From a virus (Duplodnaviria > Heunggongvirae > Uroviricota > Caudoviricetes), in the IMG/VR virus record IMGVR_UViG_2872152978_000001, positions 1 through 25,455 of that record: a DNA stretch of 25,455 nucleotides; one strand, written 5' to 3'. The notes under the pieces are model-generated. The model saw only the letters and a list, made by a program, of their open reading frames with translations. It ran no database searches and was not told the origin of the DNA. Each line of letters begins with the position of its first letter. Position 1 is the stretch's first letter. Positions 20,809-21,885 of the stretch are shown in pieces. The translations under genes were made by a program, and so were the position numbers.

Positions 20809-21885
20809 TTACCCCCTGAAGCCCGGCGGAATTTCGTTATCCGGTTCAGAAATATGATTCACACAACGCTGGTTGTTCGTGCCGCTTACCGGGAGCAACC
20901 AGGGGTTCTCAAAATTCCGGTCCGGTCCAAAAAACGTCGTCGCTCGCTGAACAAATTCCGTTCCCGTTTTCCCGGTAGCCGCCAGGTATCTTGCGTAACG
21001 CCTCACGCCATCCAGCATGGCCTCTGGTGGCACCCCCTCGCGTAATCTGGCCTTCCAGGCACTGAAAGCGGATTTCTTCGGGTTTGCCCCGGCACGCAAC
21101 GGGTACTCCCGCCAGACCTGTTCGAACACATCCGGATAATCCACTCGTCCCACAGACTGCCCGGTGTTTTCCGGGACTACCCGATCGGCTTCCCGCTGAA
21201 TGGCGGAATCGGCTTCAGGCTGCTGCAGTTGGTGTGATTGCTCCGGACTTGCGGTCATCACCTGCTGCACAGCGCCCGAATCGGCTTTCAGCGCATACGC
21301 TGAATCGGCTTCCGGTGTCGTGCCTGCTGGCTGACCAGGATTGACGGTCTGAACATCCCCTGCCTGGTTCGTGGCGTTTTTTACGCCATGGACCATAGTG
21401 TTTTGATCTTCTTGATCTGTATCTTTATCTGTATCTTTATCTGTCGTGACTCGTCGTGACATGTGCGTGACATATCGTGACGCGCCGTGACAATCGCCAT
21501 TTTGTTCCCGCTTTCTTTCCCTCTCTCGCTGCGCCCTCTTGCGCTCTGCAGGAGATTTTGCGGTTTGCGGAATATTGCCGTTGTCCTCTTTCAGCACCTG
21601 GCGTTTTTCCCATCCAGTGATTAAATCACCATCAAGTACCCGCCCCTGCATCGTCTGCAAAATTGAATCAATTACCTCTTCTGTCACGTCGAGCGCACTT
21701 GCCAAATCTTCTGTCGTGACATCAATGTGACCTCGCGTGACATTTCGTGACGCGCTCACCAGGAGGTGGATATACACTGCCATCACTGTTGCAATTGGCT
21801 GCCCTGACACCCTGGCAATTGTTCGCCACTTAGGGTCATTTGGCATGTCATGCCATAATCTGAGCCAGGCGTTAGCCATACTCAC
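20809..21885 (-). CDS. putative phage replication initiation protein (lambda O-like / YdaU-like) with internal origin iterons
   Basis: 358 aa; N-terminal MANAWLRLWHDMPNDPKWRTIARVSGQPIATVMAVYIHLL and C-terminal FEQVWREYPLRAGANPKKSAFSAWKARL...TFFGPDRNFENPWL resemble Rac YdaU-type proteins; lies just downstream of the ydaS/ydaT-like pair; contains two clusters of helically phased CGTGAC repeats. Confidence 0.6.
   Translation of the reverse strand: MSMANAWLRLWHDMPNDPKWRTIARVSGQPIATVMAVYIHLLVSASRNVTRGHIDVTTEDLASALDVTEEVIDSILQTMQGRVLDGDLITGWEKRQVLKEDNGNIPQTAKSPAERKRAQRERERKREQNGDCHGASRYVTHMSRRVTTDKDTDKDTDQEDQNTMVHGVKNATNQAGDVQTVNPGQPAGTTPEADSAYALKADSGAVQQVMTASPEQSHQLQQPEADSAIQREADRVVPENTGQSVGRVDYPDVFEQVWREYPLRAGANPKKSAFSAWKARLREGVPPEAMLDGVRRYARYLAATGKTGTEFVQRATTFFGPDRNFENPWLLPVSGTNNQRCVNHISEPDNEIPPGFRG
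21411..21491. repeat. iteron-like array 1: tandem 12-bp repeat plus five CGTGAC motifs at 10–11 bp phasing
   Basis: CTGTATCTTTAT x2, then (T)CGTGAC at 21445, 21455, 21466, 21476, 21486; encodes the DKDTDKDTD linker. Confidence 0.6.
21683..21751. repeat. iteron-like array 2: four GTGAC motifs at about 10 bp phasing plus one inverted copy
   Basis: CGTGAC 21715, TGTGAC 21726, CGTGAC 21736, CGTGAC 21746; inverted GTCACG at 21683–21688. Confidence 0.5.

Follow-up and report, generated by a model that had tools for sequence, protein, structure and literature searches.

A probable iteron-type replication origin within the initiator gene of a lambdoid prophage remnant

Background

The origin of phage lambda is in the central part of gene O and is composed of four 19-bp imperfect inverted repeats (six in Stx phages) and an AT-rich tract (PMC7466680). 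In phage SPP1, oriL is located in gene 38 and combines direct repeats with an adjacent unwinding element, and a 356-bp fragment was sufficient in vitro (PMC5737612, PMC6316719). Here we describe a locus of the same plan in the IMG/VR virus record IMGVR_UViG_2872152978_000001 (Caudoviricetes), of which positions 1 to 25,455 were analyzed and are referred to as the window. Positions 21401-21751, inside a replication-initiator gene on the minus strand, probably represent the replication origin of a lambdoid-type phage. Along the direction of transcription the locus consists of array A (four direct iterons and one inverted), a spacer of about 225 bp, array B (five iterons) and an AT-rich, purine-biased tract of 40-45 bp. 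The comparative evidence for its function is strong, and from it we infer protein binding, melting, helicase recruitment and origin firing.

As in lambda, the putative origin is placed in the initiator's own gene with an AT-rich tract directly after a repeat array, binding is presumed to reside in the N-terminal domain, the C-terminal part would recruit the helicase, and the gene follows cro and cII equivalents in an early-right operon (PMC7466680). This resemblance had already been pointed out when the DNA was read without database searches (hereafter the sequence-only reading), and it was upheld. The same reading called the gene O/YdaU-like. However, neither Phage_rep_O (lambda O) nor DUF1376 (YdaU) was matched in Pfam even at E ≤ 10, and the protein is thus without sequence relationship to lambda O. 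Three further differences were observed. The iterons are direct cores of 6-7 bp placed once per helical turn and not 19-bp imperfect inverted repeats, two arrays are present of which one lies inside the coding sequence of the folded N-terminal domain, and no P-like loader gene is found in the present phage lineage.

SPP1 G38P offers the second comparison, as here too direct repeats bound by the organizer and an AT-rich unwinding element are embedded in the organizer gene (PMC5737612, PMC6316719). In both cases the initiator is not an AAA+ protein, and residues 5-120 of the present protein align end to end with positions 1-115 of 121 of PF09681 (Phage_rep_org_N), although the match (E-value 0.026, 15 bits) is below the cut-off of 23.3. 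In contrast to SPP1, the present hosts are Proteobacteria, the repeat units differ from the AB boxes, the C-terminal partners are a DnaT-like tail or domain or others, and no second distant binding region (oriR) was found in the complete genome (46 kb) of the related Escherichia coli phage Tritos. The locus therefore has the iteron-plus-unwinding-element plan of lambda ori and SPP1 oriL in a family that is neither lambda O nor YdaU.

Results and discussion

Phased repeat arrays in the window

When the plus strand of the window was scanned for CGTGAC, five copies were found at 21445, 21455, 21466, 21476 and 21486 (steps of 10, 11, 10 and 10 bp). They form array B (21445-21491, minus strand; nt 389-435 of the coding sequence, CDS), which on the coding strand reads as five direct GTCACG iterons at 10, 10, 11 and 10 bp. 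Tandem Repeats Finder reported a period-10 array over 21443-21492. The second cluster, array A (21715-21751, minus strand; CDS nt 129-165), contains exact CGTGAC copies at 21715, 21736 and 21746 and the one-mismatch form TGTGAC at 21726 (steps of 11, 10 and 10 bp). On the coding strand it reads GTCACG, GTCACG, GTCACA and GTCACG at 10, 10 and 11 bp. A single inverted iteron (21683-21688, GTCACG on the plus strand and CGTGAC on the coding strand) is located 27 bp past array A. Five copies at 10-11 bp spacing in array B had been described in the sequence-only reading exactly as found here. Its "four more" at 21715-21751 do form a cluster, but only three of them are exact, the fourth is the TGTGAC variant, and the inverted copy had been missed.

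The two arrays occupy different parts of the protein-coding sequence. Array B lies in the region coding for a disordered linker and is read in all three frames (C-H-G, A-S-R, V-T, M-S-R and V-T), the peptide derived from its motifs being CHGASRYVTHMSRRVTT. Array A codes for a surface loop of the N-terminal domain (S-R-N-V-T-R-G-H-I-D-V-T) in which the motif is translated as A-S-R, V-T or G-H, and the inverted copy falls inside D-V-T. Thus, the earlier placement of the iterons in an interdomain linker is correct for array B, whereas array A lies inside the coding sequence of the folded domain. The peptide DKDTDKDTD, which had been attributed to the CGTGAC motifs, is instead the translation of a 12-bp AT-rich repeat (see below).

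CGTGAC was counted 20 times on both strands of the window, compared with 11.1 ± 3.5 in shuffled sequences, and none of 100 shuffles reached 20. With steps of 10/11 bp, a single hexamer formed chains of at most 5 in the window; among 300 dinucleotide-preserving shuffles the maximum was 2 in 298 cases and 3 in the remaining two. As the shuffles never yielded a chain longer than 3, the phased repeats are real and beyond chance.

All motifs fall within the minus-strand open reading frame (ORF) 20809-21885, which is listed from a GTG at 21885. The true start is likely the ATG at 21879, because it is preceded by the ribosome-binding site AGAGGTGA, the homologues begin with MANAW or MSNSW, and the CDS of Tritos has 1071 nt. 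The initiator gene is therefore given as 20809-21879 (minus strand), with a product of 356 amino acids and not 358 as first stated.

Conservation of the arrays in homologous genes

The sequence-only reading had made its proposal depend on conservation of the motif spacing in homologues, and this was confirmed. The motif is found at the same CDS positions (129, 139, 149, 160, inverted at 193, and a second array at about 387-430) in about 25 genes, which average 69 % nucleotide identity. The sharers are Pseudomonas phage phita81A, Aeromonas phage pAEv1818 and about 22 bacterial genomes, with amino acid identities of 58-98 %. In phita81A, CGTGAC occurs four times in each array and in pAEv1818 three times in each, at the shared CDS positions and with the inverted copy in both phages. 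The inverted copy at position 193 is present in most class-1 homologues. Equivalents of array B have 3 to 5 copies although the linker peptide varies.

When one genome per species was scanned, 49 loci with 39-98 % identity were obtained, of which about 22 have GTCAC at the conserved positions. Their hosts include Shigella, E. albertii, Aquitalea, Rahnella, Serratia, Bordetella and Pseudomonas, as well as Gilvimarinus, Acidovorax, Pseudothauera, Castellaniella and Chromobacterium. The distance from the last iteron of array A to the last of array B is 249, 258-261 or 267-270 bp in most loci and thus changes in three-codon steps. A different kind of change was seen in the E. albertii locus (L006; CDS nt 129-186), where a loop insertion of 7 amino acids (TCHGVSL) adds two GTCAC units, so that array A has six. 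Arrays can therefore grow by in-frame iteron units inside the coding sequence of a folded domain.

The gene occurs with 98-99 % nucleotide identity in viable E. coli phages (vB_EcoS-689R5, Tritos, Evi and others). Similarity to the Pseudomonas and Aeromonas phages is confined to the N-terminal half (about 70 % DNA identity), and similarity to the Stx phages 75/02, POCJ13 and PhiR5_2 to the C-terminal half. Since the sharers of the N-terminal half carry CGTGAC, whereas the Stx-type genes have no copy of it within the gene, the motif goes with the N-terminal half. In two Stx-type relatives with a different N-terminal domain (L003 and L004), the only repeats seen were the in-frame GAATCGGCTTC and CAGGAA. 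The window also has GAATCGGCTTC (coding strand GAAGCCGATTC, peptide E-A-D-S) in four in-frame copies at about 21183-21315, in steps of 24, 72 and 24 bp. They sit in the linker ahead of the C-terminal domain, are also found in O-like genes of Stx phages (L004, 2873-2986), and may be either a repeat of the protein or further DNA sites.

Selection on the DNA sequence

For a comparison of synonymous sites, 21 class-1 genes with a gap-free alignment of the first 360 nt were taken (mean pairwise identity 0.69), and fourfold-degenerate third positions of conserved residues were used. The entropy of these sites was 0.12 bit in the iterons (n=7) and 1.68 bit outside them (n=25; Mann-Whitney p = 3.5 × 10−5). 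The pattern was also visible codon by codon. At R49, whose arginine codon separates two iterons, the third base varies freely. In the inverted copy, GTG is the only codon used for V65, and the codon after it varies in its third base. The motifs are under selection as DNA, beyond the needs of the protein code, as judged from these alignments. A peptide repeat cannot explain the motif because the 10/11-bp steps run through all three reading frames.

The AT-rich tract

Array B is adjoined by a candidate DNA unwinding element (21401-21444) that is AT-rich and, on the coding strand, purine-rich. It holds the tandem 12-bp repeat noticed in the sequence-only reading, for which Tandem Repeats Finder gave the unit TCTTTATCTGTA in 2.9 copies at 21410-21444. 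On the coding strand the repeat is GATAAAGATACA, translated as D-K-D-T, and the repeat itself is the probable unwinding element. The least stable 40-mer of the region 20300-22700, intergenic regions included, is 21401-21440, which touches array B. It is 75 % AT with a free energy (dG) of -43.4 kcal/mol, compared with a gene mean of -57.4 (sd 3.7), and is in the top 0.5 % of the window.

In nearly all array-bearing homologous loci, and in every iteron class, the least stable 40-mer of the first 900 nt begins a few bases past the last iteron of array B. The tract has 57-85 % AT (65-85 % in most loci) even when the host has 60-69 % GC, and its coding strand is purine-rich with GATAAA/GATACA units (D-K, D-T and E-K peptides).

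On the side of the tract away from array B, an inverted repeat with a 13-bp stem is present (21365-21395, plus strand; single-strand DNA dG -10.9, z -5.1). It is regarded as optional and was dropped as a core part of the origin, as equivalents were not consistently present in the homologues. A promoter and terminator scan of 20700-22700 found none above the shuffle expectation.

The initiator protein

The protein matched phrog_3729 ("replication initiation protein") end to end with an E-value of 2 × 10−255, and weaker PHROG matches to "replisome organizer" were obtained (E-values 3.5 × 10−5 and 1.6 × 10−3). The Pfam search of the protein gave no match at 0.01. When an AlphaFold2 model was built from 52 homologues, residues 4-98 formed a well-predicted helical domain with a helix-turn-helix and a beta hairpin, followed by a basic helix (residues 110-127) and a disordered stretch (129-160, predicted local distance difference test score <50). 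The protein thus consists of an N-terminal winged helix, a basic helix, a disordered linker and a C-terminal domain with a DnaT-like tail. The N-terminal domain (residues 1-98, encoded by 21586-21879, minus strand) is predicted from this model to be a winged helix resembling the N-terminal domain of DnaD, and would be the part that reads the iterons. The basic helix AKSPAERKRAQRERERKR is encoded by 21499-21552 (minus strand) and, together with just one other segment, distinguishes the iteron classes.

No meaningful match was obtained when the Protein Data Bank (PDB) was searched with a profile of the N-terminal domain. The N-terminal domain of DnaD and winged-helix plasmid initiators (RepA_N type, 4pta) differ from it in having only about 10 % sequence identity with it. 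The fold alone proves neither homology nor a mode of DNA reading, because generic Crp-type winged helices score equally. A search with the N-terminal domain retrieved more than 900 protein clusters, many of which are named "phage replisome organizer" by NCBI.

The last 20 residues (RCVNHISEPDNEIPPGFRG; 20812-20871, minus strand) resemble the C-terminus of E. coli DnaT (PDB 6aep, E-value 8 × 10−4; NCBIfam DnaT, E-value 7.5 × 10−4) and nearly match it (SEPDNxIPPGFRG). The resemblance is limited to the tail, since the protein as a whole scores 19 bits with NCBIfam DnaT, for which the cut-off is 201. DnaT is a host restart factor without an origin-binding domain. The tail may serve to capture the host DnaB-DnaC loading pathway.

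The evidence identifies the protein as a replication initiator, as the sequence-only reading had assumed. This is based on the phrog_3729 match, the predicted winged helix, the position after cro-like and CII-like genes, the loader or helicase genes next to it in relatives, and the annotation of Tritos. In phita81A the gene after the initiator encodes a primase-helicase (Toprim and DnaB_C). In pAEv1818 it encodes an IstB/DnaC-like loader, and there the C-terminal domain of the initiator is Pfam DnaT; some homologues carry the Pfam DnaT DNA-binding domain PF17948. In Tritos the initiator is the sole annotated replication gene.

Iteron classes and covariation

Distant subfamilies of the N-terminal domain that lack GTCACG carry another phased motif at both array places. 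A GTAACG class (L026, L029, L036 and L040) and a CGAACGC class (L032, L034, L035, L037-L039, L044, L046 and L048-L050) were observed, and the class cores have the 3' ACG in common. The inverted copy follows the iteron class, since in L029 (GTAACG class) it is CGTTAC. In L042 and L052 a domain of about 100 amino acids is inserted after the N-terminal domain, and CTACG(TAG)/CGTAG arrays flank the insertion (CDS nt about 327-375 and 643-700). The second of these arrays is followed by GATAAA/GATACA repeats, so that this fourth class has the same architecture.

The 23 loci with GTCACG arrays have C-terminal domains of 9 unrelated groups, downstream genes of 13 groups and upstream genes of 18 groups. 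The N-terminal domain is therefore the only constant partner of the arrays. A site for a host factor was considered and ruled out, as the classes are mixed within genera (Pseudomonas and Acidovorax each contain both GTCACG and CGAACGC members) and one class is spread over distant genera. Taken together, the synonymous-site test, the covariation and the co-inheritance show several sites whose DNA sequence is conserved and which are particular to the lineage of their cognate initiator, as expected of an iteron origin.

When the GTCACG and CGAACGC classes were compared, the fixed differences within the folded domain were confined to the loop encoded by array A (N-V-T..H versus A-T-E..R), and those outside the folded domain lie in the basic segment after residue 99. 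The array A loop might help to read the iteron, which would then encode its own reader, but we regard this as a rather unlikely possibility. If it were so, a change in the DNA site would alter the recognizing peptide in one mutational step, and such coupling would explain both the existence of at least four specificity classes and the in-frame array growth in E. albertii. The idea is weakened, at least for the GTAACG class, because the change from GTCACG to GTAACG is synonymous in the V-T frame and needs no change of the peptide. GTAACG cannot be used in the frame in which it reads TAA, and the lone GTCACG in array B of L029 (CDS nt 412-456) occupies exactly that frame. The coding frame thus constrains the choice of iteron variant.

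Proposed mechanism and alternative explanations

According to the proposed mechanism, monomers of the N-terminal domain would bind the 6-bp GTCACG cores, possibly assisted by the basic helix behind the domain. With one core per helical turn, the bound proteins would be aligned along the same side of the DNA and assemble into a nucleoprotein complex, which together with negative supercoiling would melt the adjoining AT-rich tract. The variable C-terminal domain would then recruit the helicase. In the present phage this would presumably be the host DnaB-DnaC, because the protein terminates with a copy of the DnaT tail and the phage itself has no gene for a helicase or loader.

Several observations weigh against an origin. 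No helical phase common to the homologues emerged between the two arrays. Seven loci (L031, L033, L041, L043, L045, L047 and L051) keep the N-terminal domain without recognizable phased arrays; four of these (L043, L045, L047 and L051) are from one metagenome-assembled genome, in which the AT-rich tract is also absent. The predicted recognition helix and wing show no difference between iteron classes, and the N-terminal domain of DnaD, which the predicted winged helix resembles most, serves oligomerization and is not known for sequence-specific binding. In the open-access literature that was searched, no binding or initiation experiment was found for any member of the family; nor was a description of the origin, the motif or the family found there, although an older one is possible.

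Of the other explanations, the best is that the arrays are genuine binding sites of the initiator or of another phage protein but serve regulation (an autoregulatory roadblock, copy-number pairing or a replication enhancer), and that initiation occurs elsewhere. Two separate arrays and an inverted copy resemble the control iterons of plasmids, and the separation of the arrays by about 260 bp, the distance of array A from the AT-rich tract and the homologues that keep the N-terminal domain without arrays are all in favor of it. However, array B adjoins the least stable tract in nearly all array-bearing loci, in four classes and in hosts of 33-69 % GC, which is the signature of an unwinding element and not of an operator. 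The complete genome of Tritos contains no GTCACG cluster outside the initiator gene. We therefore consider regulation in place of an origin unlikely, and the two roles are mutually compatible.

It is also conceivable that the arrays act on RNA or on a single strand, through translational control of the initiator mRNA or a hairpin between direct and inverted copies. Every direct copy is on the transcribed sense strand, and GTCACG could pair with the inverted CGTGAC. The spacing of 10-11 nt, however, is the helical repeat of duplex DNA, the array region has no stable fold (z -0.36), and both the AT-rich tract of low duplex stability and the winged-helix fold suit double-stranded DNA, so that this explanation is improbable.

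Slightly less probable still is a role in partition, as a centromere-like site, or in packaging, as a recognition site. Two clusters of direct repeats at 10-11 bp recall plasmid R1 parC or TubR sites, and this formal likeness of two one-turn repeat clusters is the sole point in its favor. No gene for a partition nucleoside triphosphatase or adaptor is found nearby, and the elements are integrated lambdoid prophages. In Tritos the terminase genes are 30 kb from the initiator gene, and in the homologues the arrays accompany the initiator N-terminal domain beside helicase or loader genes.

Finally, S-R-x-V-T peptides in both clusters might suggest that the repeats are a by-product of a peptide motif (SRNVT or VT), of chance or of codon bias, but this is refuted by the synonymous-site test (sites frozen inside the iterons and saturated in the flanks) and by the shuffle test, and it also conflicts with the use of three frames and with the different DNA motifs that other subfamilies put at the same places.

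Genomic context and state of the prophage

The gene is preceded on the same strand by genes for a small helix-turn-helix (cro-like) protein and a YdaT/CII-like protein (YdaT_toxin match, Rac-type family), and is followed by genes for DUF977 (Ren-like), DUF4406 and Ead/Ea22 proteins. The window as a whole is a prophage remnant riddled with insertion sequences (IS) beside a tRNA-Ser(CGA) gene (24475-24564). Three identical copies of an IS3-family OrfB (1-819, 13841-14659 and 22996-23814), an IS66-family transposase (18014-19552) and a C-terminal integrase fragment (23965-24447) were annotated. A gene of the IpaH type (E3 ubiquitin ligase with NEL and LRR_TTSS domains) lies beside a prophage tail-fibre gene (6461-8104, plus strand, and 8858-10126, minus strand), which points to a Shigella-type effector carried on the remnant.

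About 15 bp separate the cro-like gene (22642) from an IS3-family element that starts upstream of it, and the early promoter and repressor region is missing. As this element has taken the place of that region, the phage has probably lost the expression driven by its own early promoter. The sequence-only reading had suggested that the prophage may still carry an origin. The ORF, both arrays and the AT-rich tract are indeed intact in the window, but autonomous firing of this copy is doubtful, unless the gene is expressed from elsewhere or a related prophage supplies the initiator.

Conclusions

The locus very probably represents a phage origin that is conserved and had not been annotated before, in which iterons and an unwinding element are combined in an uncommon layout. 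At least 80 % of a 2.4-kb module was present in 1558 of 5426 complete E. coli genomes, and the initiator is a "hypothetical protein" in the records listed. RefSeq often labels the gene in this way and no origin is annotated, so that a defined origin and initiator would improve the annotation of prophages. As an experimental system, the family has the advantage of a compact origin (about 350 bp) and an initiator made of a single protein. Its natural specificity classes, at least four in number and with sites written in the coding sequence of the binder, represent a natural experiment on the co-evolution of initiator and origin. In addition, the mimic of the DnaT tail suggests how a phage without a helicase or loader could capture the host DnaB-DnaC.

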